The notes under the pieces: generated by a model
Database searches by the model: none
Told to the model about the DNA's origin: nothing
What the model saw: only the letters and a program-made list of their open reading frames with translations
Part shown: piece by piece, positions 13,935-39,569 of the stretch
Layout of the letters: every line of letters begins with the position of its first letter
Numbering within the stretch: position 1 is the first letter of the stretch
Translations under genes and position numbers: made by a program
Virus record (IMG/VR): IMGVR_UViG_3300038334_000112
DNA length: 64,000 bases
From: an uncultured virus (IMG/VR IMGVR_UViG_3300038334_000112)
Taxonomy: Duplodnaviria > Heunggongvirae > Uroviricota > Caudoviricetes
Direction: 5' to 3' (one strand)

Positions 13935-13937
13935 GCC

Positions 13938-16820: not shown

Positions 16821-16823
16821 GCC

Positions 16824-20528: not shown

Positions 20529-20529
20529 C

Positions 20530-22106: not shown

Positions 22107-22154
22107 CCCCGGACACCTGTCCGCGTTATGTCTCGCCCTCGCTTCGGCGAGGAT
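22107..22154 (+). promoter_or_regulatory. Late (head) promoter with candidate activator site
   Basis: CCCCGGACACCTGTCCGCGTTA, containing the dyad GGACA-CC-TGTCC; matches 11171-11192. Confidence 0.6.
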
Positions 22155-22160
22155 GCGGGC

Positions 22161-23306: not shown

Positions 23307-23307
23307 C

Positions 23308-23646: not shown

Positions 23647-23673
23647 CCAGGCCCGCAAGGAGGCTCAATACAC

Positions 23674-24600: not shown

Positions 24601-24633
24601 GCCCGGCCTGGCCGAGAACGCGAGGAACACAAC

Positions 24634-24933: not shown

Positions 24934-24936
24934 GCC

Positions 24937-25362
24937 ATGGCCTACGCCACCACGCAAGACATGGTGGCCCGGTTTGGTGAGGGCGAAGTTCGTGCCCTCA
25001 CCGACCGGGAGCACACCGGGAGCATCGACGAAGCCGTGTTGGCTCCGATCCTGGACGAGGCCACGGCGGAGATCGAGGGCCACCTGGCCGGGCGCTACGC
25101 CCTGCCTCTGGTGAATGTGCCGAGGCTTGTCACGGGCATCTGCTGCGACATCGCCCGCTACCGGCTCTCCGGCGCGGAGGTCCTGGAGACCGACCCCACG
25201 CGCAACCGCTACCGCGACGCCGTGCGCCTGTTGGAGCAGATCGGCGCGGGCAAGGTGGGCCTGGGACTGGACCAGGCTGGCCAGGCTGCGCCCACGTCCA
25301 CGAGCGTGCTGATCCAGCCCGGCGAACGCAGCTTCCCGCAGGGCAGCCTGGAGGACTACTAG
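24937..25362 (+). CDS. Head-tail adaptor (Mu gp36 / DUF1320)
   Basis: 'MAYAT..DM..RFG', 'GRYALPL', 'CCDIARYRL'. Confidence 0.9.
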   Translation: MAYATTQDMVARFGEGEVRALTDREHTGSIDEAVLAPILDEATAEIEGHLAGRYALPLVNVPRLVTGICCDIARYRLSGAEVLETDPTRNRYRDAVRLLEQIGAGKVGLGLDQAGQAAPTSTSVLIQPGERSFPQGSLEDY

Positions 25363-25363
25363 C

Positions 25364-26002
25364 GTGGCCGACTTCACCTCCGAGATCACCATCGCTGCCA
25401 TCGAGGACGCCCTCAAGGCGCGCATCGAGCAGGCCAGCGCCTCGGGCGAGCTGGGCTACAAGCTGGCCGCCATCGGCACCTACGGCGGCGAGTTCGACGA
25501 CCTGGACAGCCTGGGCAAGGCCATGCGCGCCCTGCCCGCCGTGTGGGTGGTCCTGGCCGACTCCGGCAAGCCGGAACGCAAGGGGCCGGACAAGTGGCTG
25601 GTCCCGGCCACCTTCGCCATCATGGTGGGGGCGCGCAGCGTGCGCAACACGGAGGCCGCACGGCACGGGACACAGACGGCCAAGGGCGTGGAGCCCGGCA
25701 CCTACCGCCTGCGCGAGGACATGTGGAATCTCCTCGTGGGGCAGGACCTGGGCCTGGCCATCGACAACTTCAAGCCTGGCAAGACGCTGACCATCTTTCA
25801 GACCCGCGTCCAGAGCCAGGGAATTTCCGTGCTCGGCCTGGAGCTTCACACGGCGTTCGTCCGCACCGGCCAGGCCACCCTCCTGCTCGGCAAGGCCCCG
25901 GAGCTGGAACAGATCGGCATCAACTACGACCTCACCCCGCCGGGTGACGGCGAACCGGACGCAGTGGACCTCATCACCCTGCAACAGGGGGAGAGCGAAT
26001 GA
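25364..26002 (+). CDS. Tail completion protein (Mu gp37 / DUF1834)
   Basis: 'IEDAL..RI', 'TYGGEFD', 'PAVWV'. Confidence 0.85.
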   Translation: MADFTSEITIAAIEDALKARIEQASASGELGYKLAAIGTYGGEFDDLDSLGKAMRALPAVWVVLADSGKPERKGPDKWLVPATFAIMVGARSVRNTEAARHGTQTAKGVEPGTYRLREDMWNLLVGQDLGLAIDNFKPGKTLTIFQTRVQSQGISVLGLELHTAFVRTGQATLLLGKAPELEQIGINYDLTPPGDGEPDAVDLITLQQGESE

Positions 26003-26007
26003 ATGCG

Positions 26008-26670
26008 TTAGCTGGATTTCTTGGCGCGACGCTCTGCCAACAGGCCGGGGAGAGTGAAGGCGTAAAGCAAGAACAACTCGGTGAACGACTTAAGCGCCTC
26101 GCAAGTTACCTTATCAAAGGCATCTTCTTCATGTGTGGCATCGTTACCGTCAAGTCGAATAGCATGAGCCCATTCTTTCATTGCTGGAGTAATCTCATGC
26201 TTCTCTGCGAGTTCGTTAATTCTAGCGTGAAGTTTCCCACTCGTCGAGCCAAGCTCCTTTGTCGCAATATCAAGTGTCTTGCGAAACATTGCACCAGATG
26301 CATCAAAGTTGCTTCGCTGAAAGCTGTCAACAGCCTGCATGTATATTCTAGAAATATTATTCGAAACATGATCTGGAGGCTCATTAACATGGCACTTTGG
26401 GTAGCACGCATAAACCTCATAGTATTTTTCAAATTCAGTCCCATTAGGTATGTTGTGAGGTGAAGATGGACATTGCTTCTTCATTTTAACAAGAAGAACA
26501 CAACCTCCAAGACAATTGTTACAATGTATAAATAGGTTATAAGTCGAAGATGCGATTGACCCATCAAAATTTTTATAAAAATCAAATTGCTGAATCACTG
26601 AGTCAGCAACAGATGTAAACAAAACTTTATCAGTATTGCAGTGTGGGCATCTCATTGAATAGACAGCCAT
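26008..26670 (-). CDS. DUF4145-domain cargo protein
   Basis: CPHC and CNNC zinc motifs; 'GAMFRKTLD', 'IRLDGNDATH'; AT-rich and antisense to the tail operon. Confidence 0.85.
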   Translation of the reverse strand: MAVYSMRCPHCNTDKVLFTSVADSVIQQFDFYKNFDGSIASSTYNLFIHCNNCLGGCVLLVKMKKQCPSSPHNIPNGTEFEKYYEVYACYPKCHVNEPPDHVSNNISRIYMQAVDSFQRSNFDASGAMFRKTLDIATKELGSTSGKLHARINELAEKHEITPAMKEWAHAIRLDGNDATHEEDAFDKVTCEALKSFTELFLLYAFTLPGLLAERRAKKSS

Positions 26671-26753
26671 GGCGCACCTCTTGGTCAACGATTCAACACG
26701 TAATCAACGAATATTCGACATACCCAATACCGTCAACAGCATAAGGAGTCCCC

Positions 26754-26933
26754 ATGATCGTCAAAGCCGCCTTTGGCCTGAAAGTGCCCAAGGAAGACAA
26801 ACCCCGCGAGTACATCACCGAGGATGTGGCCGTGGATGTGCCCGAAACCGCGTACTACCTGCGCCGCCTGGCCGAGGGCGACCTGCTGCCCGCGAAAAAG
26901 GCCGGCGCGAAGTCGACCACCGGAGGAGAGTAA
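26754..26933 (+). CDS. Mu gp38-like small tail protein (DUF2635)
   Basis: 59 aa, below the ORF-track cutoff: MIVKAAFGLKVPKED...YYLRRLAEGDLL; AAGGAG RBS. Confidence 0.85.
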   Translation: MIVKAAFGLKVPKEDKPREYITEDVAVDVPETAYYLRRLAEGDLLPAKKAGAKSTTGGE

Positions 26934-26936
26934 GCC

Positions 26937-28358
26937 ATGACCAGCCCGAACATCAGCTTCGACAAGATTCCGGCCAGCATCCGCAAGCCGGGCAAGTATT
27001 TCGAGTTCAACACCAAACTGGCGGTGCGCACCCTGCCCGCCAACGCGCAGCGCGTGCTCATTTTGGGCCAGCGCCTGGCCGAGGGCAGCGTGGCCGCCCT
27101 TGTGCCCACGCAGGTCTTCAGCGACGCCGAGGCCGCCGAGTGCTTCGGCCAGGGCAGCATGGCCCACCGCATGGTGCGCGCGGCCATCAAGGCCTTTGCG
27201 TACATCGACCTGACCTGCATGGCCCTGGACGATGCGGGCGCGGGCGTGGCCGCCACCGGCACCGCGACCCTGGCTGGAGCCGCCACCGGCTCCGGCGTGG
27301 CCACCGTGCAGGTGGGCATGGACCTGGTGCAGGTGGCCGTGGCCAGCGGCGACACCGCTGCGGATGTCTCCGCAGCGCTCAAGACCCAGGCCGACCAGCA
27401 GCCGGACCTGCCCGTGGCCTTTGCAGCGGCCGCCGGGGTGCTCACCCTCACGGCCTTGCACAAGGGCACCCTGGGCAACAGCATCAAGATCGCGGCCATC
27501 TGCACCGCCACCGGGCTCACCGCGAGCGTGACGGCCATGACGGGCGGCGCGACCGATCCGAGCCTGACCGAGGCCCTGGCCGCCATTGCCGGGGCCGGGC
27601 ACCACATCATCATCACCCCCTTTGCCGACCAGGCCAGCCTGACCGCCCTGCGCGACCATCTGGAGCTTGTGGGCGGCCCGCTGGAGCAACGCGGGGCCAT
27701 CGGCGCGTACGCCCTGGCCGGAACCCTGGCCACGGCAACCACCCTGGCCGGACAGGTCGACCATGGGCGCATCAGCGGCGCGCTCTTGCGCGGAGCCAGG
27801 CGTCTGCCCTGGGAGATCGCCGCCGCTTACGGCGCGGTCATCGCCAGCGAGGAAGACCCTGCCCGGCCGCTGAACACCCTGGAGCTGCTGGGCATCGACG
27901 CGCCGGACATTGGCCAGCGCCTCACGCGCACCGAGCAGGAGGTGCTGCTCAAGAACGGCGTCACCCCGCTGGAGGTCGGCCCCGGCGACCGCGTGCAGAT
28001 CGTGCGGGCCATCACCACCTACACCAAGGACGCGCAGGGCATCGATGACGTGAGCCTGCTCGACCTGACTTCCATCCGCACGCTGGACTACGTGCGCAAG
28101 GCCGTGCGCGAGCGCATCTCCTTACGCTTCCCGCGCGAGAAGCTGTCCGAGCGCACCGGCCCCAAGGTGCGCAGCGAGATCCTGGACGTGCTCGTCAAGC
28201 TGGAGGAGCTGGAGATAGTGGAAGCGGTGGAGGCCAACAAGGACGGGGTGATCTGCGAGCGCGACAGCCAGGACCCGAACCGGCTGAACGCCAAGATCCC
28301 CGTGGACATCGTCAACGGCCTGCACGTGTTCGCTGGCCGCATTGATCTGCTGCTGTAG
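26937..28358 (+). CDS. Tail sheath protein
   Basis: 'ISFDKIPASIRKPGKYFEFN', 'GVTPL', 'RAITTY', 'VNGLHVFA'. Confidence 0.95.
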   Translation: MTSPNISFDKIPASIRKPGKYFEFNTKLAVRTLPANAQRVLILGQRLAEGSVAALVPTQVFSDAEAAECFGQGSMAHRMVRAAIKAFAYIDLTCMALDDAGAGVAATGTATLAGAATGSGVATVQVGMDLVQVAVASGDTAADVSAALKTQADQQPDLPVAFAAAAGVLTLTALHKGTLGNSIKIAAICTATGLTASVTAMTGGATDPSLTEALAAIAGAGHHIIITPFADQASLTALRDHLELVGGPLEQRGAIGAYALAGTLATATTLAGQVDHGRISGALLRGARRLPWEIAAAYGAVIASEEDPARPLNTLELLGIDAPDIGQRLTRTEQEVLLKNGVTPLEVGPGDRVQIVRAITTYTKDAQGIDDVSLLDLTSIRTLDYVRKAVRERISLRFPREKLSERTGPKVRSEILDVLVKLEELEIVEAVEANKDGVICERDSQDPNRLNAKIPVDIVNGLHVFAGRIDLLL

Positions 28359-28392
28359 CCGCCCGTGAATGGGCGTTTAAGAGAGGTTCAAC

Positions 28393-28761
28393 ATGACCAT
28401 CGAATATACGGGCGCCATCGTCCTGTCCGTGGACGGCAAGGACTTTGATGTCGAATCCTGCGACGTGACGCGCAAGACTGGCCGCAAGGCCGTGAAGACC
28501 ATGAACCGCACCGGCAAGCCCAAGGGCTTTGCCAAAGGCGTGGCCGAGTTCAGTCTCAAGATCACCCTGCCGGTGACGCCGGGCGACCCGGAATGGGCCG
28601 ATGTCGAGAACGCCAAGATCACCCTTGAGCCGCTAAACACCGGGGACAAGCGCGTGAGCTACACCGGCTGCTTCACCACCGACGTGGGCGAAAAGTACCA
28701 GGTCGACGGCGAGGCCAAGCGCGACATCACCGTGGAAGCCCTGGACCGGAAGGTGGAATAA
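28393..28761 (+). CDS. Tail tube protein
   Basis: 122 aa directly after the sheath gene. Confidence 0.85.
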   Translation: MTIEYTGAIVLSVDGKDFDVESCDVTRKTGRKAVKTMNRTGKPKGFAKGVAEFSLKITLPVTPGDPEWADVENAKITLEPLNTGDKRVSYTGCFTTDVGEKYQVDGEAKRDITVEALDRKVE

Positions 28762-28764
28762 GCC

Positions 28765-29271
28765 ATGAGCGATCTTCTCACCAAATTGAAGGCCGGGCGC
28801 GCAGCGCAGCGCCGCGTGACCCTGCCCAGCAAGGACGGCCAGGGCGTGGAGCTGGGCCTGCGCGTGCTCACCGAGGCCGACTACATGGAGGCGGGCCTGG
28901 CCGCCATCGAGACCCTGCGCGCGGCCGGGCACGAGGACGTGAACGTGGCCAACGCCGACCTGTACGAGCAGGCCAAGGTAACGGAGCTGCTTGCCCGCGC
29001 CCTGGTGGACCCGGCCACGGGCAAGCCCCTGGTGGAGAGCGCGGCGGAGCTGCGCGGCGCTCTCGCCCGCGCGGACAAGATGTTCCTCATCGACCAGTAC
29101 CTGGACCACGAGCGCGAGTATTCGCCCAGCGAGGTGAACATGAGCGCCGAGGACTTCGCCCAGCTGCTGGAGGACGTAAAAAAAAATCCCGCCACGCCTC
29201 GTTTGAGCGATTCCAGTACCGCCACGCTGAAAAGGCTCGTGCAGTCTTTGGCCGAGCCGGAAGCGAGCTGA
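28765..29271 (+). CDS. Tail assembly chaperone, with a probable -1 frameshift extension to 29414
   Basis: Lies between tube and tape measure; A9 run at 29178-29186. Confidence 0.8.
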   Translation: MSDLLTKLKAGRAAQRRVTLPSKDGQGVELGLRVLTEADYMEAGLAAIETLRAAGHEDVNVANADLYEQAKVTELLARALVDPATGKPLVESAAELRGALARADKMFLIDQYLDHEREYSPSEVNMSAEDFAQLLEDVKKNPATPRLSDSSTATLKRLVQSLAEPEAS

Positions 29272-29410
29272 CGCGGGGGCAGTGGCTGTATCTCCTGGCC
29301 ATGGCCCTGGCCGAGGCGGAGGACCTGAAGGAAGCCGCAGGCGGCAAGGGCACTAAGCGTTTCGTCGCCACCCGGCGCAAGAATAAACCGAACACCAAGA
29401 GGCCCCGACC

Positions 29411-31219
29411 GTGAGCAACAACCTGGCTGTGTTTCTGCGCTTGAATTGGGACGGTGGCCGCGTGGCCGCCGGGCTCGGCCAGGCCGAGGCCCAGCTGCGC
29501 AAGTTCAGCTCCGGGGCCTCGAAGCAGTTCCTGGGCCTGCGCAAGCACGCGCATGAGCTGTCCACGGCCATGGGCGGCTTCTCCAACATCTCGCGGCTGG
29601 CGGGCGGGTACCTGGGCCTCCAGGGCGCGCGCGCGGCCATCACCAGCAACCTGAACTTCGAGAAGACCCTGCTGGAGGCAAAGCAACTGGCGGAGATGAA
29701 CGCTGGCCAGGCCGCCCGTATGCGCGACATGGCCATCAACCTGTCCAGGAGCGGTCTGGCCAGCCCGCAGGAGAACGCCGAGGCCATCCAGACCCTGGCC
29801 AACGCGGGCATGCGGTTCGAGGCCATCGAGGGCACCATTGCCGAGGCCAACCGCTCGGCTGTGGCCTTCCGCAGCACGGTGAAGGACATCGCCAACATGG
29901 ACTTCGACCTACAGGAGAAGTTCAAGATCACCCCCGAGCAGCTCAAGGCCGTGCACAACATGCTCTACTACCACTCCAAGGCGGGCCGGTTCGAGGCCCA
30001 GAGCTTGAGCATGTTCGCGCCCAAGTTCCTGACCAAGCTGGCCCAGGTGGGCATCGGCGGCGTGCAGGGCGTCAACCTCACCGGCGCGATCCTCCAGGCC
30101 GTGCAAAAGGCCGCCCCGGCCACGGACCCGAGCACCACCGTGACCATGCTGGAGCACGGCATGGGGCACCTGTTCAACGCCCACGACAAGAAGAACATGC
30201 GGAAGTTCGCCAAGATCGACGTCCAGAAGTACACGCCCGGCGGCAAGTTCTACGGCGAGGGCGGCGTGCAGGGCATGCTCGACATGGCCCAGGCCATGAA
30301 GGGCGCGGGCCTCATGGACATGCACAAGCTGGGGCGCATCTTCCGCGAGCAGTACACGCAAACGTTCTGGTACCAGATCATGCAGAACCTGGACGAGGTG
30401 CGCGAGGCCATGCGCAAGGGCGACCAGGCCATGAACGCGGACACCATCGAGAAGGACTACAAGGAGGTCATGGGCTCCAACTTCGGCAAGGTGAAGCGCG
30501 CGCAGAACACCGTGGACCGGGCGGAGCTGGGCGGCGCGGCCACCGCTGGCACATCGGCCTGGGCGCGGATTGTGGAATACGCCTCGGAGAACCCCTTGCA
30601 GGCGGGAATGGGCGGCCTCGGCCTCTTGATGGCCGGACGCATGGGCTACAACCGGATGGTGAAGGGCAAGGGCGGCGGCGCGGGCGGCATCGCCGACGCG
30701 GCCATGGGCATGGCCGGGGTGCAGCGCGTCTTTGTCGTCAACATGCCCGGCGCGGCAGGCGTGGGCGGCGGCCAGCTGGCCCTGCCGCCCGGCGCTGGCT
30801 GGAGCCCGGAAGGGGCGGCCAAGGCCTCGCGCTGGGCCGGTTCGCTTGGCGCGGCCAAGGGCGCGCTCAAGCTCGGCGTGCCCCTGGCGCTGCTCTCCGC
30901 CGGGTTCGATGCCTACAACGTGCACAACAATGACCAGCTCAACGCCCAGGCCAAGAAGCTCGAATACGGCCGCATTGCGGGCGGCGCGGCGGGCGGCCTG
31001 GGCGGCGCGGCCATCGGCGCGGGCATCGGCGCGTTGTTCGGCGGCGTGGGGGCCATCCCCGGCGCGCTCATCGGCGCCTGGCTGGGGCAAATGGCGGGCG
31101 AGAAGGCGGGCAGGGCCGCCACCGAGAAGATCATCCTGAACAACACCATCATCCTGGACGGGCGCGTGGTGGCGGAAAGCGTTCAGGAACACATGCGCGA
31201 CGCGGCGAACAGGGACTAG
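29411..31219 (+). CDS. Tail tape measure protein
   Basis: 602 aa, Ala/Gly-rich and helical, 'QRVFVVNMP', ends 'ILDGRVVAESV'. Confidence 0.9.
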   Translation: MSNNLAVFLRLNWDGGRVAAGLGQAEAQLRKFSSGASKQFLGLRKHAHELSTAMGGFSNISRLAGGYLGLQGARAAITSNLNFEKTLLEAKQLAEMNAGQAARMRDMAINLSRSGLASPQENAEAIQTLANAGMRFEAIEGTIAEANRSAVAFRSTVKDIANMDFDLQEKFKITPEQLKAVHNMLYYHSKAGRFEAQSLSMFAPKFLTKLAQVGIGGVQGVNLTGAILQAVQKAAPATDPSTTVTMLEHGMGHLFNAHDKKNMRKFAKIDVQKYTPGGKFYGEGGVQGMLDMAQAMKGAGLMDMHKLGRIFREQYTQTFWYQIMQNLDEVREAMRKGDQAMNADTIEKDYKEVMGSNFGKVKRAQNTVDRAELGGAATAGTSAWARIVEYASENPLQAGMGGLGLLMAGRMGYNRMVKGKGGGAGGIADAAMGMAGVQRVFVVNMPGAAGVGGGQLALPPGAGWSPEGAAKASRWAGSLGAAKGALKLGVPLALLSAGFDAYNVHNNDQLNAQAKKLEYGRIAGGAAGGLGGAAIGAGIGALFGGVGAIPGALIGAWLGQMAGEKAGRAATEKIILNNTIILDGRVVAESVQEHMRDAANRD

Positions 31220-31228
31220 GGGGCGGCC

Positions 31229-32488
31229 ATGGCCTGGAAGGACACCCTGCTCGACGCCAAATTCCGGGGCATCGTTTTCGACTGCCAGTTGGTGGACGAC
31301 GACACCGAGCGCCACGCCGTGGAGCACGCCCGGCCCTTTGTGGACGGCGCGCAAATGGAGGACATGGGCCGGGGCGCACGCCGCCTGAAGCTCAAGGCCA
31401 TCTTTTTCGGCGATGACTACGAGGCGCGGCTCCAGGCCTTCCTGAAAGCCCTGGACGAACCGGGCGCGGGCGAGCTGGTGCATCCGGTGTTCGGCCCCAT
31501 GAAGGGCCAGCTACTCACCACCCACATTCACCACGAGGCCGACCATGTGGACGCGGCCGAGGTGGAGCTGGCCTTTGCCGAGTCCAACCTGGCCAAGCCC
31601 CTGTTCGAGCGCAGCCTGCCCGGCCAGAAGGCCGCCAACATCGCCGACATGGCCGGGGCCGCGCGCACCGGCGCTGGCGGCGTGCTGGGCGGCGCGGCGG
31701 CGGGGAGCAAGAACCCCCTGGCCCTGGCCAAGGCCTCGCTGGAGGCCGTGCGCCAGCTCAAGGCCCAGAGCCGCGACTACATCACCTCCGGCGTGGACGC
31801 GGTTTCCGCGCCGGGCGGCTTCGTGCGCGACGTGGCCGGGCTGGTCTCGGGCATCGTGGATCTGCGCGGCTTCGACGCGGCCTCGCTCATGAGCGACTAC
31901 ACGAGCATTTCCAAGCTGCTCACCTCAAGCATACTGCTGCCCGGCTTCAACTATTCCAGTACCTCGGGCGGCAATTTCTCGGTCGGCAGTACCTCGGGCG
32001 GAACCGTCGCAGGGGCCGACCTGGCCACAGCCGTCACCCCCAGCCGCGAGGCGGACGTGGTGCTGGCCCACGTGGAGCTGGAGGCCGCCCTGGGCAAGGC
32101 CGAGACCGCGCAGACCGTGCTGGAGAGCGAGGCCGAGACGCCCACGCTCTCCCCGCCGGAGATCGAGGCTGTGGCGGCGGACACGCGCACCAGCATCGAG
32201 GGCTCCATCATCACCTACCGCAGGCTGTACCCTATCGAGCAGTCGCGCCGGGTGACGGAGCCGCTCAAGGACGTGGCCCTGGCCGTACAGGACGCAGCCA
32301 AGGCCATCATCGAGGCCCGGCCCCCGCTGGTGGACCGCCAGGTGGACAACCCGGCCTGCCTGCGCCTTTTGGCGCACCGCTGGTACGGCGACCACACCCG
32401 CGCGCCGGAGCTGCTGCGCCTGAACCAGCCCTTGCGCGACCCCAACTTTCTGACCGCCGGGGAGGTGCTGCGTGGCTACGCCAAATAG
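31229..32488 (+). CDS. DNA circularisation / tail protein (Mu gp43-like)
   Basis: 'MAWKDTLLDAKFRG', 'EDMGR', 'GELVHPVFG', 'LAHRWYGD'. Confidence 0.9.
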   Translation: MAWKDTLLDAKFRGIVFDCQLVDDDTERHAVEHARPFVDGAQMEDMGRGARRLKLKAIFFGDDYEARLQAFLKALDEPGAGELVHPVFGPMKGQLLTTHIHHEADHVDAAEVELAFAESNLAKPLFERSLPGQKAANIADMAGAARTGAGGVLGGAAAGSKNPLALAKASLEAVRQLKAQSRDYITSGVDAVSAPGGFVRDVAGLVSGIVDLRGFDAASLMSDYTSISKLLTSSILLPGFNYSSTSGGNFSVGSTSGGTVAGADLATAVTPSREADVVLAHVELEAALGKAETAQTVLESEAETPTLSPPEIEAVAADTRTSIEGSIITYRRLYPIEQSRRVTEPLKDVALAVQDAAKAIIEARPPLVDRQVDNPACLRLLAHRWYGDHTRAPELLRLNQPLRDPNFLTAGEVLRGYAK

Positions 32489-33680
32489 CGTGACTGATGT
32501 GCGGGACACAGCCGACAAGGTGGCCCTGCTCGTCGGCGGCAAGGCCCACGACGAGTGGGAGAGCTACGAGATCGACTCGGACCTGCTGACCCCGGCGGAC
32601 GCCTGGCGCGTGCGCCTGGGCTTGTCCGAGGACAGCCTGTTGCCTGCGAACGTAACTCCCGGCGCGCCTGTACAGGTGCGCATCGGCGCGGACCTGGTCA
32701 TGACCGGGCGCATTGACGACGTGCGCGTGCGCCTGGACAAGCGCTCCCACAGCCTGGAGATCCTGGGCCGCGACAATGCTGCCACGCTGCTCGACTGCTC
32801 GGCTCCGCTCACGGGCGGGCGCAAGCTGGACCTGGCGGAGATCATCGCCAAGGTGGTGCGGCCGCTCTATCCGACAGGGGGCCTGACGAAGATCCGCATC
32901 GATGCGGACAAGGCCGTCACCCGCCAACGCGAGAAGATCAACGTGGAGCCCGGCGACACCGCCTGGGACACCCTGGCCCACATTGCCGAAGCCAACGGCC
33001 TGTGGCCCTGGTTCGAGCCGGACGGCACGCTGGTCATCGGCGGCCCGGACTATTCCGACGCCACCAACCCGCCCGTGGCCGTGCTGGTGCTGAACCCGCG
33101 CAAGGTGGGCGAGCCAAACGGGACAGGCGAGACCAACGTGGAGAGCATGGAGCGCCGGGAGAGCGTGGCCGAGCGGTACAGCACCATCACCGTGCTGGGC
33201 CAGACCCACGGCACCGAGGAGGAGGACGGCAAGAACGGCCTGAAGTCCTCGGCCGTGGACGCGGACCTGGAGGCGCGCTGGCCCCGGCGCAAGATCGTCA
33301 CCGACTACGAGGCCGACAGCGTGGCCGTGTGCCGCTCGCGCTCGCAGAAGCTCCTGGCGGACAGCCGCCTGAAGGGCTTCGAGCTGCGCGTGGAGGTGCA
33401 GGGCCATCACATCAACGCGCCCACCATGCCCGGCCACGGCAAGCTCTGGACGCCTGGCCAGCGGGTTTTGGTCTACGCCCCGCCCGTGGGCGTTGTGGGC
33501 ACGCTTTTCCTCATGGCCCGCACCTTCTGCCTGTCGCGCGGCGGCGGCACCACCACGCGCCTTTCCCTGCGCGAGGACAAGGTTTGGATTCTGGAGGCCC
33601 ACCCGCACAAGCGCAAGCACCGCAAGGGCAAGAACTACACCCCGGACGTGACGGATGAAACAGGAGGCGCTGACGAATGA
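32472..33680 (+). CDS. Baseplate hub (Mu gp44/P-like)
   Basis: 'WESYEIDSDLLTPADAW', 'GRD..ATLLDCSAP'; start could instead be 32490. Confidence 0.88.
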   Translation: MATPNSVTDVRDTADKVALLVGGKAHDEWESYEIDSDLLTPADAWRVRLGLSEDSLLPANVTPGAPVQVRIGADLVMTGRIDDVRVRLDKRSHSLEILGRDNAATLLDCSAPLTGGRKLDLAEIIAKVVRPLYPTGGLTKIRIDADKAVTRQREKINVEPGDTAWDTLAHIAEANGLWPWFEPDGTLVIGGPDYSDATNPPVAVLVLNPRKVGEPNGTGETNVESMERRESVAERYSTITVLGQTHGTEEEDGKNGLKSSAVDADLEARWPRRKIVTDYEADSVAVCRSRSQKLLADSRLKGFELRVEVQGHHINAPTMPGHGKLWTPGQRVLVYAPPVGVVGTLFLMARTFCLSRGGGTTTRLSLREDKVWILEAHPHKRKHRKGKNYTPDVTDETGGADE

Positions 33681-34261
33681 AGAAGCTCATCGCCGAGGCC
33701 ATCAAGCGCCACCTGGCTGGCATCCGGCTGCCGTTTCGCGCCCAGCTCACGGGACACGATACCGCGCCCGGCGTGGGCCTGGTCCAGGCCAAGGCCCTGG
33801 CCGGGGAAAAGCTGCAAGCCGCCGAACTGTTCCAGCACTACGGCCTGACCAGCGCCCCGCCCGCCGGAACCATGCTCCTGGTGGTGCCCGTAGGCGGCTT
33901 TACTGCCCACGGCATCGTGGTGGGCGAGGAGAACTCAGGCTTCCGCTTGAGGGGCCTCAAGTCCGGCGAGGTGGCCCTGTACACCGACGAGGGCGACCAC
34001 ATCATCCTCAAGCGTGGCCGAATCATGGAAATTGAAACGGAGACGCTACGCGTCAAGGCCGCCACCCAGGTCGTTTTCGAGACCCCGGCCTTCAGCATGA
34101 CGAACAGCGGCGGGGCGACCACGGCCACCATCCAGGGCAGCCTGCACACCACGGGGGGCATCACGTCGGACGGCGACCACGTGGCGGGCGACGTCTCGCT
34201 TGAGCACCACACCCACCCCGGAGACAGCGGCGGCGTAACCGGCCCGCCCATAGGGAGCTAG
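33677..34261 (+). CDS. Baseplate spike (Mu gp45)
   Basis: 'QHYGLTSAPP', 'GEVALY', C-terminal 'HHTH' metal motif. Confidence 0.9.
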   Translation: MKKLIAEAIKRHLAGIRLPFRAQLTGHDTAPGVGLVQAKALAGEKLQAAELFQHYGLTSAPPAGTMLLVVPVGGFTAHGIVVGEENSGFRLRGLKSGEVALYTDEGDHIILKRGRIMEIETETLRVKAATQVVFETPAFSMTNSGGATTATIQGSLHTTGGITSDGDHVAGDVSLEHHTHPGDSGGVTGPPIGS

Positions 34262-34633
34262 ATGGACACGCTCATCGACCCCACCACCGGCGACTACGGC
34301 CTGGAGAACGGCCAGCTGCTGCGCGATCAGGCGCGCGGCCTGGGCAATGCCGTGTACCTGCGGCTCATGACCCCGCTGGGCAGTTGGTGGGCGGACGCAA
34401 CCTTGGGCTCGCGTCTGCATGAGCTGGCGCGGGAAAAGGACGTGGCCCGCGTGGCCGTGCTGGCCAAGAAATATTGCGAGGACGCCCTGGCCCCGCTCAT
34501 CACGGACGGGCGCGCGGCCTCCATCGAGGTGGCCACCGAACGCCTGCATGACGGCAGGCTGCGCCTGGCTGTCGCCGTCACGGACGCGGGCGGACGCGAG
34601 CACCTCTTCAACCATCACGTGCAGGTGGGCTGA
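34262..34633 (+). CDS. Baseplate protein (Mu gp46)
   Basis: 'GSWWAD.TLGSRLHEL.REK'. Confidence 0.9.
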   Translation: MDTLIDPTTGDYGLENGQLLRDQARGLGNAVYLRLMTPLGSWWADATLGSRLHELAREKDVARVAVLAKKYCEDALAPLITDGRAASIEVATERLHDGRLRLAVAVTDAGGREHLFNHHVQVG

Positions 34634-34634
34634 C

Positions 34635-35693
34635 ATGGCGTACACACCCCCGGACCTTTTCGAGATCGTAGCGGGCATCCTGCGCGACGTGCAGAACAAG
34701 CTGCCCGAGGCCGCCACGGGCGTGGACTCGGACTTCGGCGTGCGCGCCAATGCCACGGGCGGCGCTGTTGAAGGCCTGTACCAGCACCAAGTGTGGATTG
34801 CGCGCCAGACATTCCCGGACACAGCGGACACGGACATGCTGGAGAAGCACGCCAGCCTGCGCGGGCTGACCCGCAAGCGGGCCACCACGGCCACGGGCGC
34901 GGCCACCTTCAGCGGCACGCCCGGCGCAGCCATCCCCCTGGGAACCGAGGCAAAGACGTTGGCCGGGCTGGTGCTCATCACCAACGAGGCGTCCATCATA
35001 GGGGCGGGCGGCACGGCCATTGTGCCGGTCCAAGGCGGCGCGGCCGGGGCGGTTTACAACTTGGCCGCAGGCACCAGCCTCACCCTCACGAACGCACCCG
35101 CTGGCGTGCAGGGAGCGGCCAGCCTGGCCACGGCCACCACGGGCGGCACAGACGCAGAGACGAACGCCGGGCTGTTGGCCCGGTTGCTCGACGTGCTGCA
35201 AAACCCGCCCGCTGGCGGCAACAAGGCCGACTGGCGGCGCTGGGCCATGGATGTGGATGGCGTGACTGCCGCCTATGTGTTCCCGCTGCGCCGGGGCATC
35301 GGCACCGTGGACGTGTGCGTCACCTCCGGCGGCGGCCTGCCCTCGGAGGAGATCCTCGCCGCCGTGCGCCTGCACCTGGACGAGGAACGGCCCACCGCCG
35401 TGCGCAATTTCGCGGTCTTCGGCCCGGAGCTGCTGCCCGTGCCCGTGCAGGCGCTGGTGCGGCTTTCCGGCCTGACCTTGGACCAGGCGCAACCCCTCGT
35501 TGAAGCGGCGTTGAACGCCTATTTTGCGACCCTGGAACCGGGCGACCTGGTCTACCTTTCGCGCATCGAGACGGCCATCTCCGGCGTGTCCGGCGTGGTG
35601 GACCGGCAGGTGACAGCCCCGGCGGCCAACGTGGCCGTCACGGCCACACAGTGGGCGCGCCTGGGCGTCGTGACCCTGGAGGTTATGCCGTGA
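34635..35693 (+). CDS. Baseplate J-like wedge protein (Mu gp47)
   Basis: 'GGTDAET', 'PPAGGN.ADW.RWA', 'RRGIGTVDV'. Confidence 0.92.
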   Translation: MAYTPPDLFEIVAGILRDVQNKLPEAATGVDSDFGVRANATGGAVEGLYQHQVWIARQTFPDTADTDMLEKHASLRGLTRKRATTATGAATFSGTPGAAIPLGTEAKTLAGLVLITNEASIIGAGGTAIVPVQGGAAGAVYNLAAGTSLTLTNAPAGVQGAASLATATTGGTDAETNAGLLARLLDVLQNPPAGGNKADWRRWAMDVDGVTAAYVFPLRRGIGTVDVCVTSGGGLPSEEILAAVRLHLDEERPTAVRNFAVFGPELLPVPVQALVRLSGLTLDQAQPLVEAALNAYFATLEPGDLVYLSRIETAISGVSGVVDRQVTAPAANVAVTATQWARLGVVTLEVMP

Positions 35694-36262
35694 ACCACGC
35701 GGACCTGCTGAAGCTGCTGCTACCGCCCGTGTCCTATGACCCTTCGGGGGCTGTGCTCACGGCCAGCATTGAGGCCGAGGGCGCGGCCCTGGATCGGGCG
35801 CACACGCTTGCCAGCTACGTGCTGGAGGCCATCAGCCCGGCTGGGGCGGGCGGCCTGTGGCTGGCGGATTGGGAGCGCGTGCTGGGCCTGCCGGACGGAT
35901 GCGCGGGGGGCTTAAGCCAGACCATGGCCGAGCGCATCGCCGCCGCCATGTCCAAAATGCGCGAGCGCGGCGGCCAGAGCCGGGCCTACTTCATCGGCGT
36001 TGCCGCTGCCCTGGGCTACGCCATCACCATTGAGGAGCACGACGCCTTCACCTGCGAGACCGCCTGCGACCAGCCCATCTACGACGAGGATTGGCGCTAC
36101 GCCTGGACGGTGCGCGCGCCCGAAACGACGGTGCGCGAGTTCACCTGCGGTTCCGGCTGTTCCGACCCCCTGGCCAGCTGGGGCAATGCGCTTTTGGAGT
36201 GCGTGCTTTCGCGCCTCAAGCCCGCGCATACGCACCTCACCTTCACCTACGGCCACAACTAA
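35690..36262 (+). CDS. Baseplate protein (Mu gp48 / DUF2313)
   Basis: 'LADWERVLGLP', 'GGQSRAYF', 'LKPAHT'. Confidence 0.9.
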   Translation: MNHADLLKLLLPPVSYDPSGAVLTASIEAEGAALDRAHTLASYVLEAISPAGAGGLWLADWERVLGLPDGCAGGLSQTMAERIAAAMSKMRERGGQSRAYFIGVAAALGYAITIEEHDAFTCETACDQPIYDEDWRYAWTVRAPETTVREFTCGSGCSDPLASWGNALLECVLSRLKPAHTHLTFTYGHN

Positions 36263-36274
36263 CCGGAGGACAGC

Positions 36275-37024
36275 ATGCAACGTGTCAGCACCGCCACCGC
36301 AGTGGCGCAGAAGCCCGCCTACGCGACAGGCGGCGAGCCCGGCTTTTTCACCCAGGGCGACCCGGTCCAGGGCCTCCCGGCCACCGTGCCCGGCCAGGAC
36401 TTCCTGAACCGCGTTCAGGAGGAACTCTGCAACGTCATCCTGGCCAGCGGCCGTACGCTCGACGGCGCGGACGACACCCAGCTGATCAGCTCCATCATGG
36501 ACATCATCGCCGCCCATGCGCCCACCATCGGCCCGGCCAGCACCACCGAGGCGGGCATCGTGGAACGGGCCACCGCCGAGGAAGTCATCGCCGGGGAGGA
36601 CGCCGCGCGTTACGTCTGCCCGGCGGACCTCATGGCCGCTCTGGTGGCCGGACTTGCAGGCGTGGCCCGTGTGGGTGCGGTGAACGCCTACACCCGCCAG
36701 CAGTATGCCGAGCTGGTCTCGCGCGTTGGGGCCAGCGGAGCCCAGGCCGTGGACCTGGACCTGCACCAGGCCCTGTTCATCACCGCCACCGGGGCGCTCA
36801 CCATGGCCGACCCCGAGCACATGGCGCATGGCAAAACCTGTCAGCTCTACCTGTATGCGGCCAGCGCGCAGACCATCAGCTGGGGCACGGCCTGGCACGC
36901 CGCGTCCGTCGCGGCTCTGCCCACCGCGCTCATTGCTGGCAAGCTGCTGCTGATCAGCGCCGTGTGTGTCACCACCCCGGCGGGCACTTACATGGTGCCC
37001 GTGGGCATGGCCCAGGAGGCCTAG
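36275..37024 (+). CDS. Short tail fibre protein
   Basis: Mu-type fibre N-terminus 'GFFTQGDP..G.PAT.....FLN.VQEEL'. Confidence 0.8.
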   Translation: MQRVSTATAVAQKPAYATGGEPGFFTQGDPVQGLPATVPGQDFLNRVQEELCNVILASGRTLDGADDTQLISSIMDIIAAHAPTIGPASTTEAGIVERATAEEVIAGEDAARYVCPADLMAALVAGLAGVARVGAVNAYTRQQYAELVSRVGASGAQAVDLDLHQALFITATGALTMADPEHMAHGKTCQLYLYAASAQTISWGTAWHAASVAALPTALIAGKLLLISAVCVTTPAGTYMVPVGMAQEA

Positions 37025-37025
37025 C

Positions 37026-37535
37026 ATGCACATCACGCCGCTTTGCGGCCTGCCTCCGGTGTTGAAGCTTATCCCGACCACAAGGGGCGTCATCGGCGGC
37101 GACATGACCACCAGCGGGGGGCTGGCCGCTGCCTTTGACGGGGGCATCTCCGCGAGTGCAGTAGTCCCTGGATTACCTGGCGTTGCCTACATCGGAAAAA
37201 TCTGGCCAGGCCGGACCACCGTCCGGCGCATGCGGGCGTTCTCAAACTACTTTTTTGCCGCCGCCTCGCAGTACACAGTGATTGAGTTCACGCTCCAAGG
37301 CTCGAACGACACCACCAATATCCTCAACGGCACCTGGGGCACTCTCGTCCAGACTACGCTGGCCAATACCTATGGTGCGAACCAGATACTCGACGTGGCA
37401 AGCGGCATCGACGTGAGCGCCGCGTATTCCGCCCATCGGCTCAAGATGCGGACCACAAATTTCGACGGGGCCAGCACGGGCCAGCTCTCGCTCCACATCG
37501 CGGAACTTGAATTGTACGAATACTCTTACATTTAG
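37026..37535 (+). CDS. Putative tail-tip beta-sandwich (discoidin-like) protein
   Basis: 'AAFDG', 'FTLQGSND', 'IAELELY' resemble F5/8-type folds. Confidence 0.55.
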   Translation: MHITPLCGLPPVLKLIPTTRGVIGGDMTTSGGLAAAFDGGISASAVVPGLPGVAYIGKIWPGRTTVRRMRAFSNYFFAAASQYTVIEFTLQGSNDTTNILNGTWGTLVQTTLANTYGANQILDVASGIDVSAAYSAHRLKMRTTNFDGASTGQLSLHIAELELYEYSYI

Positions 37536-37543
37536 GAGGTCCA

Positions 37544-38044
37544 ATGGCTCGCTTCAGATACCCCGCAAACGCGATCATCGACGGCCAGGCCCTGGTCGAG
37601 CCCACCGTTCTGGCCCCGTGCCGCGTCACCATCGACGGCATCACGCACGGCCCGGAGATTTGCGAGCTGTGGACGCCGGAGGCACTGGCGGCCCTGGGCA
37701 TCAAGCGCGTGGTGGAGGACGCCCTGCCCGTGGACGAGCATGGCTGGCCGTACCTGCCGGGCGAGCCCGTGGATGACGAGAGAGCCACGGAGATCCTGCG
37801 CAGCTTCCCCAACGCCACGCCGGACACGGAGGGAAGCGCGGCCAACCTGGCGAACCTGGCCGCCGCCGTGCGGGCCGAACGTGGCGTGCGCATCGCCGCC
37901 TGCGACTGGACCCAGCTGCCGGATGCGCCGCTCACCACCGAAGCCAAGGCGGCCTGGGTTGCCTACCGCCAGCAGCTGCGGGACATCACCGAGCAGGCGG
38001 ACTTCCCGCAGGTGGTGGAATGGCCGGTGGAGCCGAGGGCGTAG
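37544..38044 (+). CDS. Tail fibre assembly chaperone
   Basis: 'DWTQLPDAPL..W.AYRQQLRDIT.Q.DFP..VEWP'. Confidence 0.88.
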   Translation: MARFRYPANAIIDGQALVEPTVLAPCRVTIDGITHGPEICELWTPEALAALGIKRVVEDALPVDEHGWPYLPGEPVDDERATEILRSFPNATPDTEGSAANLANLAAAVRAERGVRIAACDWTQLPDAPLTTEAKAAWVAYRQQLRDITEQADFPQVVEWPVEPRA

Positions 38045-38494: not shown

Positions 38495-38683
38495 ATGGAA
38501 AAGGAGATTCGTTGCGGCAACTGTAATCGGCTTCTGGCCAGGGGCGAGGCCCTGGCGCTAACCATCAAATGCCCGCGCTGCGGGTGCATGAACCACGTGA
38601 GGGCCACGAGCCCCGACCAAGAGCTGCATGGACAGCCGAAGCACTCGGAGGCTCAATGTGGCTCTACCTTCCCAAAGACTTGA
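38495..38683 (+). CDS. com: Com-family zinc-ribbon translational regulator
   Basis: 'EIRCGNCNRLLA....IKCPRCG.MN' immediately before the methylase. Confidence 0.92.
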   Translation: MEKEIRCGNCNRLLARGEALALTIKCPRCGCMNHVRATSPDQELHGQPKHSEAQCGSTFPKT

Positions 38684-39537
38684 CGGAATCGCCCTCTGCG
38701 CCGGAGCGGGCGGCCTGGAGCTCGGGCTCCATGTCGCCCTGCCCGGATACCGAACTGTTTGTTTCGTCGAGCGGGACGCACATGCTGCGTCCGCTCTCGT
38801 GGCCAGGATGGAAGACAAGGCCCTGGATTCAGCGCCTCTCTGGTCTGACCTGCGATCCTTCGACGGCAGAGCGTGGCGTGGCAGCGTGGATATCCTCACT
38901 GCGGGCTACCCGTGCCAGCCGTTCAGCTCGGCAGGCAAAAAGCTCGGCGCAGCAGACCCGCGCCATCTTTGGCCGGATGTCGCCCGGATCATCGGAGAAG
39001 TCGGCCCGGAGTGGGTCTTCTGTGAGAACGTCGTCGGGCACCTTCATCTGGGATTCCCGGATGTCGCCCGAGACCTTGAAGGCCTGGGCTACCGGGTTGC
39101 TGCGGGCGTGTTTTCAGCGCGAGAAGTTGGCGCTGGCCACTTCCGGCGCCGACTCTTCATCCTGGCCCACGCCCACTGTGGCCTGGTTCAAGTACGACAT
39201 CGGGGTGACGGTGGGGGCAGGCAGGCTGAAGTTCGAGGCCAAGCACCAGCTGAGTCTGGCCGGGGCGGCGGTGTCCTGGACGCTATTCTGGGAACTCATG
39301 CACTCGACGCTGGGGCCGGAGCTTGTGCGGAGCCTGGCAATCTGCCGCTCTTCGCCCCCGGTCCAGGTGACATTGCGGCTTGGTCCGACATCCTCCTGCG
39401 CAGCCCTGACCTCAAACCCGCTGTTCCTGGAGATGCTGATGGGGTGGCCACTCGGCTGGACCGACAGCGCCTCGCCGGTAACGGGGTTTGCCCCTTGGCT
39501 GCGGCGCTCGCGTTCCGAACTCTCTCGGCTGTGCTGA
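38656..39537 (+). CDS. Overlapping alternative-frame methyltransferase subunit (beta-like; TRD and motif IX)
   Basis: 293 codons open, GGAGG RBS; 'WPTP' and motif IX-like 'NPLFLEMLMGWPLGWT'. Confidence 0.7.
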   Translation: MWLYLPKDLTESPSAPERAAWSSGSMSPCPDTELFVSSSGTHMLRPLSWPGWKTRPWIQRLSGLTCDPSTAERGVAAWISSLRATRASRSARQAKSSAQQTRAIFGRMSPGSSEKSARSGSSVRTSSGTFIWDSRMSPETLKAWATGLLRACFQREKLALATSGADSSSWPTPTVAWFKYDIGVTVGAGRLKFEAKHQLSLAGAAVSWTLFWELMHSTLGPELVRSLAICRSSPPVQVTLRLGPTSSCAALTSNPLFLEMLMGWPLGWTDSASPVTGFAPWLRRSRSELSRLC

Positions 39538-39569
39538 GGCAGGCCCCGGATTCCCGCACGCGCGCGTAG
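38658..39569 (+). CDS. C5-cytosine DNA methyltransferase, catalytic (alpha-like) frame
   Basis: Motif I 'LCAGAGG', IV 'GYPCQPFS', VI 'ENV', VIII 'HFRRRLFI', X 'LAGNGVCP'; no motif IX; GTG start at 38658 (ATG at 38628 also possible). Confidence 0.9.
   Translation: MALPSQRLDGIALCAGAGGLELGLHVALPGYRTVCFVERDAHAASALVARMEDKALDSAPLWSDLRSFDGRAWRGSVDILTAGYPCQPFSSAGKKLGAADPRHLWPDVARIIGEVGPEWVFCENVVGHLHLGFPDVARDLEGLGYRVAAGVFSAREVGAGHFRRRLFILAHAHCGLVQVRHRGDGGGRQAEVRGQAPAESGRGGGVLDAILGTHALDAGAGACAEPGNLPLFAPGPGDIAAWSDILLRSPDLKPAVPGDADGVATRLDRQRLAGNGVCPLAAALAFRTLSAVLRQAPDSRTRA

Follow-up and report, generated by a model that had tools for sequence, protein, structure and literature searches.

In bacteriophage Mu, com controls translation of the DNA-modification gene mom. 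M.AquI is a C5 methyltransferase made from two consecutive gene products, and the enzyme is divided between motifs VIII and IX. M.EcoHK31I was reportedly described by Lee, Kam and Shaw in 1995 as an alpha/beta C5 methyltransferase. M.EcoHK31I (E. coli HK31; YGGCCR) requires two chains, and the beta chain is encoded in an alternative frame inside the alpha gene (PMC2836561). In a literature search that covered sources other than subscription journals, this was the single precedent found, and a widespread layout of this kind was not found.

We compared these systems to the last gene of a Mu-like prophage in a window of 64,000 nucleotides (the whole stretch of DNA that was analysed). Like M.EcoHK31I, this gene appears to specify a second polypeptide (frame B) from another frame inside the gene for the first (frame A). 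In M.EcoHK31I, the beta chain comes from a short internal ORF, whereas frame B spans the whole gene (293 codons against 303) and starts 2 nt from the frame A start. Also, the alpha chain of M.EcoHK31I retains the recognition domain, whereas here the recognition-like region is in frame B and its counterpart in frame A is an unconstrained linker. As in M.AquI, the chain break appears to lie between motif VIII and motif IX, but the genes of M.AquI are consecutive and here the frames are superimposed. As in Mu com-mom, a gene for a Com zinc ribbon is directly 5' of, and overlaps, a modification gene, and the pair is at the right end of a transposable prophage. In contrast to Mu, it is an apparent cytosine methyltransferase, instead of Mom, that is downstream of com. 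We think it probable (roughly 65%) that this gene encodes a two-chain C5 methyltransferase akin to M.EcoHK31I, in which the two frames overlap completely and have paired starts, and that is putatively controlled by Com and anti-restriction in function.

Layout of the locus at the prophage end

The prophage has genes for transposase A (2163-4355) and transposition protein B (4297-5217), and a body containing terminase, portal, Mu F-like head protein, protease, major head protein, tape measure, baseplate, tail fibre and tail-fibre assembly (37544-38044). The coordinates in the original prediction were all verified when we re-read the sequence. The features are as follows.

2163..38044, + strand: Mu-like prophage body (PHROGs scan of 19 ORFs)
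38495..38683, + strand: com gene, 62 aa, a zinc ribbon from the Mu Com family of translational activators (Pfam PF10122 Zn_ribbon_Com, E 2.1e-21)
38618..38620, strand not given: module junction (blastn and pairwise alignment vs G001, the nearest genome)
38647..38651, + strand: Shine-Dalgarno GGAGG, 4 nt 5' of the ATG of frame B and 6 nt 5' of the GTG of frame A
38656..38660, + strand: ATGTG, in which the ATG start of frame B and the GTG start of frame A overlap
38656..38683, + strand: bases without a stop in any of the three frames, namely the end of com, frame A and frame B (ORF list)
38658..39569, + strand: frame A, putative catalytic chain, 303 aa (PF00145 and phrog_363 matches)
38656..39537, + strand: frame B, candidate second chain, 293 aa, +1 relative to frame A (relatives, selection test)
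39163..39174, + strand: WPTP block of frame B, whose bases also encode ILAHA of frame A at the end of presumed motif VIII
39174..39353, + strand: region constrained in frame B only, the linker of frame A (A residues 173-232) and the recognition-like core of frame B (selection test)
39415..39462, + strand: NPLFLEMLMGWPLGWT of frame B, a motif IX-like block that shares its bases with KPAVPGDADGVATRLDR of frame A
39477..39494, + strand: GNGVCP of frame A, taken as motif X (G284 N285 G286 V287 invariant in alignment A1)
39496..39534, + strand: predicted C-terminal helix WLRRSRSELSRLC of frame B, overlapping the helix after motif X of frame A

The com ORF is in the third frame and ends at 38683, and so positions 38656-38683 are open in three frames. 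That is, the final 9 codons of com overlap both methylase frames, an overlap of 28 nt, in line with the claim that this stretch is triple-coding. GTG 38658 is the start of frame A that is conserved in relatives. Two upstream ATGs, at 38628 in frame A and at 38569 in frame B, were also considered as starts and rejected; neither is conserved in relatives and both are inside com.

Overlapping starts behind one GGAGG, as predicted, were found in the window, and paired starts proved to be general: 79 of 82 loci have them, at a spacing of 2-5 nt, with the layouts NTGTGG (43), ATGnnGTGG-type (19) and ATGnATG-type (17). Many relatives have SD-like words 5' of the paired starts, and in the low-GC phages a stop codon is immediately 5' of the frame B ATG. 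The com stop is downstream of the methylase start in 19 of the 35 com-linked loci.

The nearest genome among those searched (G001) has the same prophage, with com and then Mom (PF25680, E 3.9e-82). The DNA upstream of ~38618 is collinear with the com-mom prophage of G001 and about 92% identical to it. Identity stops near 38618, inside the 3' part of com, and blastn covers query positions 1-218 only. Neither frame A nor frame B had a Pfam match to Mom (PF25680). The methylase had been proposed to stand in place of mom, and the sister prophage agrees with this. That mom occupies the same slot in G001 indicates a cassette exchange behind com. Among candidate loci tested by Pfam, com was upstream in 31 of 34.

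We looked for a Com-responsive RNA structure at the start region. The minimum-energy fold pairs 38620-38629 with 38656-38665, burying the starts, but its z was only -1.54 vs shuffles. No consensus pairs came out of RNAalifold when it was given the start regions of 35 com-linked loci, and the pairing probability of the start region was 0.547 vs 0.538 in dinucleotide shuffles of the upstream part (P 0.29). Judged by eye, a conserved GAGCC block did not co-vary with changes of TGGCTC to TGGACC or TGGATC. The fold, RNAalifold and pairing tests were all null.

A methyltransferase chain and its candidate partner

Frame A is open from 38628 and ends with a TAG stop at 39567-39569. It contains LCAGAGG (38694-38714), GYPCQPFS (38904-38927), ENV (39024-39032) and FRRRLFILA (39141-39167), each read from the sequence, which together with GNGVCP we take to be C5-methyltransferase motifs I, IV, VI, VIII and X. 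Like the GNGV residues, P95 C96 Q97 and E133 N134 V135 are invariant in alignment A1. A profile search had been suggested for both frames. Frame A matched DNA_methylase (PF00145) in its N-terminal part, at residues 21-181 and profile positions 4-161 of 324 only (E 9.7e-31; 107.8 bits vs a gathering cut-off of 22), whereas frame B matched no Pfam family at E<=1. In addition, phrog_363 matched frame A at residues 21-306 (E 1.1e-54), and 2285 relatives were found among 8000 scored candidates. By its motifs and profile matches, frame A is a short phage C5 methyltransferase. Its order is motifs I-VIII, an unconstrained linker, a conserved LFAPGPGD..W..PDLKPA block and motif X.

We measured selection in 24 independent pairs, using a uniform mutation model without multiple-hit correction. 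For frame A, dNN/dSN was 0.23 in the N-terminal region, 0.91 (0.76-1.07) in the middle region (residues 173-232) and 0.47 in the C-terminal region (block 233-275). Between motifs VIII and X, frame A was not found to have an in-chain recognition domain and motif IX: residues 173-232 are neutral, with pLDDT <50. Foldseek matches of frame A to M.HhaI and M.HaeIII span just 170-180 alignment columns. The prediction that frame A is without a constrained recognition region was therefore correct, based on the neutrality of 173-232.

Frame B runs from ATG 38656 to the TGA at 39535-39537, a total of 293 codons with zero internal stops. Its WPTP block was located where predicted, and W170 and T172 of this block are invariant in alignment A2. 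In the terminal helix, W281 and R286 are almost invariant in the same alignment. We found 486 relatives of frame B among 6284 candidates, and the family has 29,865 cluster representatives at E<=0.001. These clusters had no annotation in the databases searched. A PDB sequence search with the C-terminal part gave a lone match to NLRP5 (E 1.5), taken as chance, and a PDB search with the frame B profile gave MS2 coat protein only, via one short stretch, which was judged spurious. It had been said that standard annotation would miss frame B. This was right in that gene callers choose one frame, but not in that frame-B products already fill the 29,865 clusters.

A single-chain relative has counterparts of parts of both frames. 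In gp80 of Mycobacterium phage A1SD1 (PQ130132, L087), FYEWLMGLPRGWVTD is followed in the same frame by GNGVVP, and 6 stops interrupt the +1 frame. The profile of frame A matches the N-terminal half of this methylase (hhalign E 4.5e-33), and the profile of frame B matches its in-frame FYEWLMGLPRGWVTD (hhalign 79% probability, E 1.6e-5, 24 columns). Like the frame A/B pair, gp80 has an N-terminal half homologous to chain A and both LMGxPxGW and GNGVVP; unlike the pair, it keeps all parts in one frame. Its C-terminal 74 residues matched nothing in the PDB at E<=10. We regard the block in frame B as motif IX-like, on the basis of its position, its pattern and the 24-column match. As to the claim of a motif IX-like block in frame B, NPLFLEMLMGWPLGWT aligns to the motif preceding motif X in the single-chain relative, and Pfam and PDB sequence searches matched no canonical motif IX.

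Chains A and B are predicted to bind each other. The complex model of A and B had ipSAE of 0.91, 0.87 and 0.91 in three runs, compared to 0.00 for the best of 3 controls. Of 157 solved complexes, 116 attain this ipSAE mark, as do 2 of 215 mismatched pairs; these counts are only rough for this case because our own alignments were fed to the complex model. The runs had at least 88% of contacts in common, and partner pLDDT was at least 69. With the same predictor, the pLDDT of frame B dropped to 42 when chain 1 was replaced by an unrelated protein, and that of frame A dropped to 59-60 with an unrelated partner. Modeled alone by AlphaFold2, frame B had a pLDDT of 43.6 and frame A 53.6, with residues 184-286 <50. 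In the complex model, B 168-175 touch A 182-188, B 282-289 touch A 36-37 and 289-294, and the motif IX-like block of frame B is closest to A 242-243 and 262-265. The WPTP of B adjoins the end of motif VIII of A, and the LMGWP of B adjoins motif X of A. The two-subunit reading in the original prediction is backed by this model (0.91 vs 0.00 for the control). The score may also stem from the model's memory of how single-chain C5 methyltransferases such as M.HhaI pack.

It is possible that frame B is real and has a function other than that of a methylase subunit, such as a regulator of A, an anti-defense factor or a DNA-binding accessory that happens to share the DNA. The large and unannotated family, the lack of a Pfam family or solved relative in the searches described above, and an N-terminal half in which no known motif was seen would all fit this explanation. 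So would the B frame of Edwardsiella phage eiAU, which continues into the next gene, an N6-adenine methylase. Nonetheless, we consider it unlikely. Frame A is without a constrained recognition region or motif IX, and the conserved blocks of B begin and end where the structured parts of A end and begin. The complex model puts WPTP and LMGWP of B by the end of motif VIII and by motif X, respectively, and the single-chain relative has the B motif within the methylase chain.

Conservation of the overlapping frame

We found that the +1 frame is kept open in relatives. We chose 80 genome loci solely by similarity to frame A (46-70% identity) and scored the +1 frame as open if its ends lay no more than 10 codons from the frame A start and no more than 25 codons from the frame A stop. 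It was essentially open end to end in 75 of the 80 loci. That is, the layout with a second chain in another frame of the first chain's gene was kept, and frame B is not generally interrupted by stops in homologous loci, the comparison that had been suggested as a check. The +2 frame of the genome loci mostly had 5-20 stops, and flanking control genes of the same loci had 2.55 stops per 100 codons in +1. The exceptions were four loci with internal stops in frame B (L039, L049, L076 and L080) and one with a shortened frame A (L020).

Phage records gave a similar picture, with a full-length +1 ORF in 9 of 11. Low-GC phages of Acinetobacter (GC 0.44), Vibrio (0.42) and Microcystis (0.40) have the full-length +1 ORF, and the Acinetobacter phage has 29 stops in +2. 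In Lacticaseibacillus phage R23.9 the frame B ORF is just 203 codons and starts inside frame A, indicating that the N-terminal half of frame B is not universally needed.

When the window's gene was reshuffled synonymously with the frame A protein fixed, 1.5-3.7% of 20,000 sequences kept +1 stop-free (P 0.015-0.037). By itself, the open +1 frame in the window makes a moderate case for something beyond chance. The relatives turn this into a strong case, and chance does not account for frame B.

Frame B is also under purifying selection. Its overall dNN/dNS was 0.57 (0.50-0.63), and was <1 in 24 of 24 pairs. By region, the values were 0.64 in the N-terminal region (<1 in 20 of 24 pairs), 0.44 (0.32-0.57) in the middle and 0.56 in the C-terminal region. 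As a control, 9 flanking ORF pairs were tested in their phantom +1 frame and gave 1.11. These values support the earlier view that frame B is conserved and selected. Codon usage was similarly informative. GC3 was 0.647 in frame A, 0.778 in frame B and 0.867 in 37 reference ORFs. In the middle region, G+C at third positions was 0.87 in frame B and 0.50 in frame A, codon usage in frame B is genome-like, and substitutions and G+C both have a three-base periodicity that tracks frame B rather than A. That is, frame B is the constrained reading between motifs VIII and X, and the first chain does not keep the recognition domain as in the M.EcoHK31I type.

An ordinary methyltransferase could in principle be made here as a single polypeptide, by programmed frameshifts of +1 after motif VIII and -1 after GWT. 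The conserved blocks do run from A (I-VIII) to B (WPTP to GWT) and back to A (GNGV), and the single-chain relative has the same block order in one frame. This explanation seems quite improbable to us. For the 170 codons ahead of the point where the ribosome would shift, frame B is open and selected (the N-terminal value above), and there it has a conserved start and N-terminus of its own. The terminal helix of frame B, which comes after the presumed shift back, is conserved too. Frame A stays open across its neutral linker, low-GC phages included, and its block 233-275, which the fusion would skip, is selected (0.47). Positions 39451-39490, read in frame B, contain no X XXY YYZ heptamer, and both frames reach the end of the gene. 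Moreover, the gap between GWT and GNG would be ~5 codons, vs ~15 in the single-chain relative. The two-product reading is therefore preferred over the frameshift or hop that the original prediction had named as an alternative. The notion that frame B is untranslated, and open through constraints on DNA or RNA or through the amino-acid and codon composition of frame A, can draw on the few reshuffles that also stay open and on the long shadow ORFs that are frequent in high-GC genes, but is very hard to sustain given a +1 frame open in 75 of 80 loci and at 40-44% GC in phages, a middle region whose periodicity of substitutions and G+C follows frame B, and 1.11 in the control phantom frame.

To our knowledge, same-strand overlaps of ~300 codons with both frames selected are very rare in bacteria and phages.

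A two-chain model and what it would mean

In the two-chain model, a ribosome at GGAGG would begin either at ATG 38656, making chain B, or at GTG 38658, making chain A. Motifs I-VIII of chain A would give the AdoMet-binding and catalytic fold, and a freely drifting linker would join this fold to the motif X helix of the same chain. Chain B would provide a recognition-like core that starts at WPTP, where motif VIII of A ends, then the motif IX-like NPxFxExLMGWPxGWT, ending just 5' of motif X of A, and its terminal helix and N-terminal half would wrap chain A. Together A (I-VIII), B (recognition, IX) and A (X) would rebuild the path of a single-chain enzyme. A and B probably make one active enzyme, in which chain B would set the target. 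The gene is behind com, in the slot that mom occupies in the sister prophage. From this position, the gene is likely to be translated late, with Com in control, and to protect phage DNA. Control by Com is suggested by this position, with the RNA-structure tests null, and the role would be anti-restriction, shielding phage DNA from the host.

More tentatively, and with doubts that outweigh our confidence, we suggest that the pair arose by a frame split. An ancestral methyltransferase of one chain would have been divided into two interlocked chains when its segment with recognition and motif IX moved to +1, with both frames kept full-length since then in phages of many bacterial phyla. In Mu-like phages the methylase unit would form, along with the 3' end of com and the region of the starts, a portable, Com-responsive cassette able to replace mom. 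The single ribosome-binding site would set the A:B stoichiometry. Exchange of the recognition cassette in B would be free of cost to chain A, for which those bases specify an unconstrained linker. If the frame split is true, then ~30,000 unannotated protein clusters would be methylase specificity subunits.

The overlap is conserved from alphaproteobacterial prophages to phages of Acinetobacter, Vibrio and cyanobacteria, and to this the window adds a sister prophage with mom in the same slot and a start region read in three frames. The two-chain reading would account for the cluster representatives of frame B that have no Pfam family. It is also possible that the annotated frame alone yields an inactive or unspecific enzyme, and so annotation, cloning and assay of short phage "DNA cytosine methyltransferases" would change. 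The layout gives a route to ask how target specificity may be swapped with the catalytic chain untouched.

Overlapping frames of the methylase gene

The window contains a Mu-like prophage, as judged by gene content. The original prediction described two frames starting at ATGTG behind a GGAGG, with com ending at 38683 in the third frame, and direct reading of the sequence confirmed this layout. Features of the window:

2163-4355, transposase A, Mu-like prophage
4297-5217, transposition protein B, followed in order by terminase, portal, Mu F-like head protein, protease, major head protein, tape measure, baseplate and tail fibre
37544-38044, tail-fibre assembly, last prophage gene upstream of com
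38495-38683, com, 62-aa Com zinc ribbon (PF10122, E 2.1e-21), third frame relative to A and B
38647-38651, GGAGG, upstream of the overlapping starts ATGTG
38656-39537, frame B, ATG to TGA
38658-39569, frame A, GTG to TAG
39668-39695, minus strand, strong terminator-like hairpin (11 pairs, then a T run) ~100 nt past the methylase stop, between the prophage end and a convergent large gene
40113-47996, minus strand, 2627-aa ORF with long Ser/Thr/Gly-rich repeats, directly beyond the prophage end; by eye, its N-terminus resembles a filamentous-haemagglutinin-type secreted protein

By its sequence, frame A is a complete representative of a known group of short C5 methyltransferases from phages. Residues 21-181 matched positions 4-161 of the 324 in PF00145 (Pfam), and residues 21-306 matched phrog_363 (PHROGs, E 1.1e-54). 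Relatives made up 2285 of 8000 scored candidates, each of ~300 aa and covering 81-97% of frame A. Their alignment was conserved in the N-terminal half and in a C-terminal block, LFAPGPGD..W..PDLxPA..DG[VML]A.R.DR.R.AGNGVC, and unconserved over the 60 residues past motif VIII. The structural model of frame A had pLDDT <50 at residues 184-286, and Foldseek matched it to M.HhaI and M.HaeIII over only ~170-180 alignment columns.

Frame B across relatives

We found that frame B is a gene and not a shadow of frame A. Conservation of the open +1 frame in homologous loci was the check proposed with the original prediction. Among 80 genome loci chosen with frame-A peptides only (46-70% identity, mostly Alphaproteobacteria), 75 had an intact frame A and a +1 frame open from within 10 codons of the A start to within 25 codons of the A stop. 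The +2 frame of the 80 loci mostly had 5-20 stops, and in +1 of control genes from the flanks, stops numbered 2.55 per 100 codons. Four of the five exceptions (L039, L049, L076 and L080) had stops inside B. In the fifth, L020 (Hoeflea sp. MAG, 1501-2423), frame A closed after ~117 codons and B was open for >300; the copy may be decaying, misassembled or a variant with B only. The case draws its strength from comparison across relatives; for the window by itself, +1 also stayed open in 1.5-3.7% of synonymous reshuffles.

Nine of 11 phage records drawn from the frame-A tblastn list had a full-length +1 ORF: phages of Acidovorax, Acinetobacter (GC 0.44), Klebsiella, Vibrio (0.42), Synechococcus, Salmonella, Pseudomonas, Edwardsiella and Microcystis (0.40). 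For Acidovorax and Synechococcus, the CDS annotated in the record is the B frame. In Lacticaseibacillus phage R23.9 (a Firmicutes phage; L086, 420-1028, locus GC 0.47), the +1 ORF has only 203 codons and starts ~78 codons after the beginning of frame A's open stretch, a little ahead of motif IV, indicating that some lineages can do without chain B's N-terminal half. Mycobacterium phage A1SD1 has a single chain and a closed +1.

Gene callers had already predicted frame-B proteins many times: they account for 486 of the 6284 candidates from one database. In another, cluster representatives numbered 29,865 at E<=0.001, 13,063 at 1e-10 and 3,011 at 1e-30. Most have no source name, the others only "hypothetical protein", and no Pfam family was found for them. 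PHROGs assigned B to phrog_1008, "DNA methyltransferase" (E 4.7e-17).

Two extensions of frame B were seen. In Edwardsiella phage eiAU (L090, KF772233, 300-1559), the ORF has no stop at the methylase gene end and continues in frame into the downstream gene, annotated as an N6-adenine methyltransferase, a possible B-Dam fusion. In the window, frame B is open for 29 codons further upstream (38569-38655, from ATG 38569), inside com. G001, the nearest genome in the comparison, shows the same shadow ORF over com though it carries mom, and we read this extension as a by-product of com, not chain B.

In 24 independent sequence pairs, we sorted differences according to what they change in each of the two frames; these counts are crude (uniform mutation model, no multiple-hit correction).

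Selection in the two frames, by region (A residues)
Region; B dNN/dNS; A dNN/dSN
Whole gene; 0.57 [0.50-0.63]; 0.35 [0.30-0.38]
N-terminal, 1-172; 0.64 [0.58-0.73]; 0.23
Middle, 173-232; 0.44 [0.32-0.57]; 0.91 [0.76-1.07]
C-terminal, 233-292; 0.56; 0.47

The whole-gene B ratio was below 1 in 24/24 pairs, and the same count in the unread +1 frame of 9 flanking ORF pairs (1433 codons) gave 1.11. Based on these ratios, the middle is coding in frame B only, and both frames code at the ends. Codon usage fits this pattern: GC3 was 0.647 in A and 0.778 in B, compared to 0.867 in 37 reference ORFs of the window, and third positions in the middle region had a GC of 0.87 in B and only 0.50 in A.

Starts for the two frames were 2-5 nt apart in 79 of 82 loci. 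Forty-three had NTGTGG (TTG/GTG in 23, ATG/GTG in 10 including the window, GTG/GTG in 10). In 19, B's ATG is two codons before Trp and the A start is 5 nt downstream; in 17, the A start (ATG in 14) is 4 nt upstream of B's ATG. The conserved N-terminus of B is M-W-L-Y-[ILV]-P, and in phages of low GC, B's ATG is immediately preceded by a stop codon.

Predicted fit of the two chains

WPTP (39163-39174) begins B's conserved core, on bases that in frame A code for the last part of motif VIII. NPLFLEMLMGWPLGWT of B (39415-39462) ends ~five codons upstream of A's GNGVCP (39477-39494). In the mycobacteriophage single-chain enzyme, FYEWLMGLPRGWVTD is followed by GNGVVP within one frame. A B profile matched its FYEWLMGLPRGWVTD motif (probability 79%, E 1.6e-5), and an A profile matched its N-terminal half (E 4.5e-33).

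This block order is also compatible with one chain made by a +1 and then a -1 shift. We consider that unlikely: the parts that a fusion would skip (the first 170 codons of B, block 233-275 of A and the terminal helix of B) stay open and under selection, B has its own conserved start, the neutral linker of A is open even at 44% GC, and there is no slippery heptamer between 39451 and 39490.

Modeling of two separate chains as a complex gave ipSAE values of 0.91, 0.87 and 0.91 (best of 3 controls, 0.00). This ipSAE level was attained in 116 of 157 solved complexes and in 2 of 215 mismatched pairs, a rough guide only, since our own alignments were used. At least 88% of contacts were common to the runs, with partner pLDDT of at least 69. 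With an unrelated partner in the same predictor, confidence fell to 42 for B and 59-60 for A. Predicted contacts join B 168-175 to A 182-188, B 254-263 to A 242-243 and 262-265, and B 282-289 to A 36-37 and 289-294; A 89-122, including motif IV, is absent from the listed interface. The model supports A-B binding, a pass being a sign of likeness rather than of binding, and it may partly reflect the predictor's knowledge of domain packing in single-chain enzymes.

A Com-linked cassette in the mom slot

The original prediction placed the methylase where mom would be, and comparison with G001 (96% of sampled words), a genome with a sister Mu-like prophage, bore this out. G001 matches the window only up to ~38618, and then has a com tail unlike that of the window and, in the same slot, a genuine Mom protein (PF25680, E 3.9e-82). 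Thus, mom is replaced by the methylase cassette, which has a com tail, SD and starts of its own.

Directly upstream, 35 of 82 loci have a CxxC...CxxC ORF; 31 of the 34 outside the window match Pfam Com (E<=1e-5), and in 19 of 35 com terminates downstream of the methylase start. Com of Mu is an activator of translation, and by analogy Com would activate translation at the methylase gene. Three RNA tests gave no signal for Com control.

The DNA common with the com-mom sister prophage ends in GTGAGGGCCACGAGCCCC (window 38596-38620; L092, the G001 locus, 1380-1680, minus strand), which adjoins the cassette junction upstream. Most of the 35 com-linked loci contain this block in the form TGAGGCC...GAGCCC, and in most its AGG is the Arg codon of Com's conserved LRP. 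Use of AGG may hint at a constraint on the RNA, and the block is a candidate Com target.

As described in part of the account of M.EcoHK31I (PMC2836561), alpha has motifs I-VIII plus motif X, as well as the recognition domain, beta has motif IX and is encoded wholly inside alpha in another frame, and both are required. Relative to that part of the account, the gene in the window differs in its complete overlap, paired starts, predicted recognition part in the second chain and wide conservation. A search of literature outside subscription journals turned up no publication that describes a widespread layout with full overlap. The original observation is confirmed, and its two-chain interpretation is supported by the open +1 frame, selection, starts and complex model. 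We read the gene as a variant of the EcoHK31I kind, in a Com-linked cassette that occupies the slot in which the sister prophage has mom.
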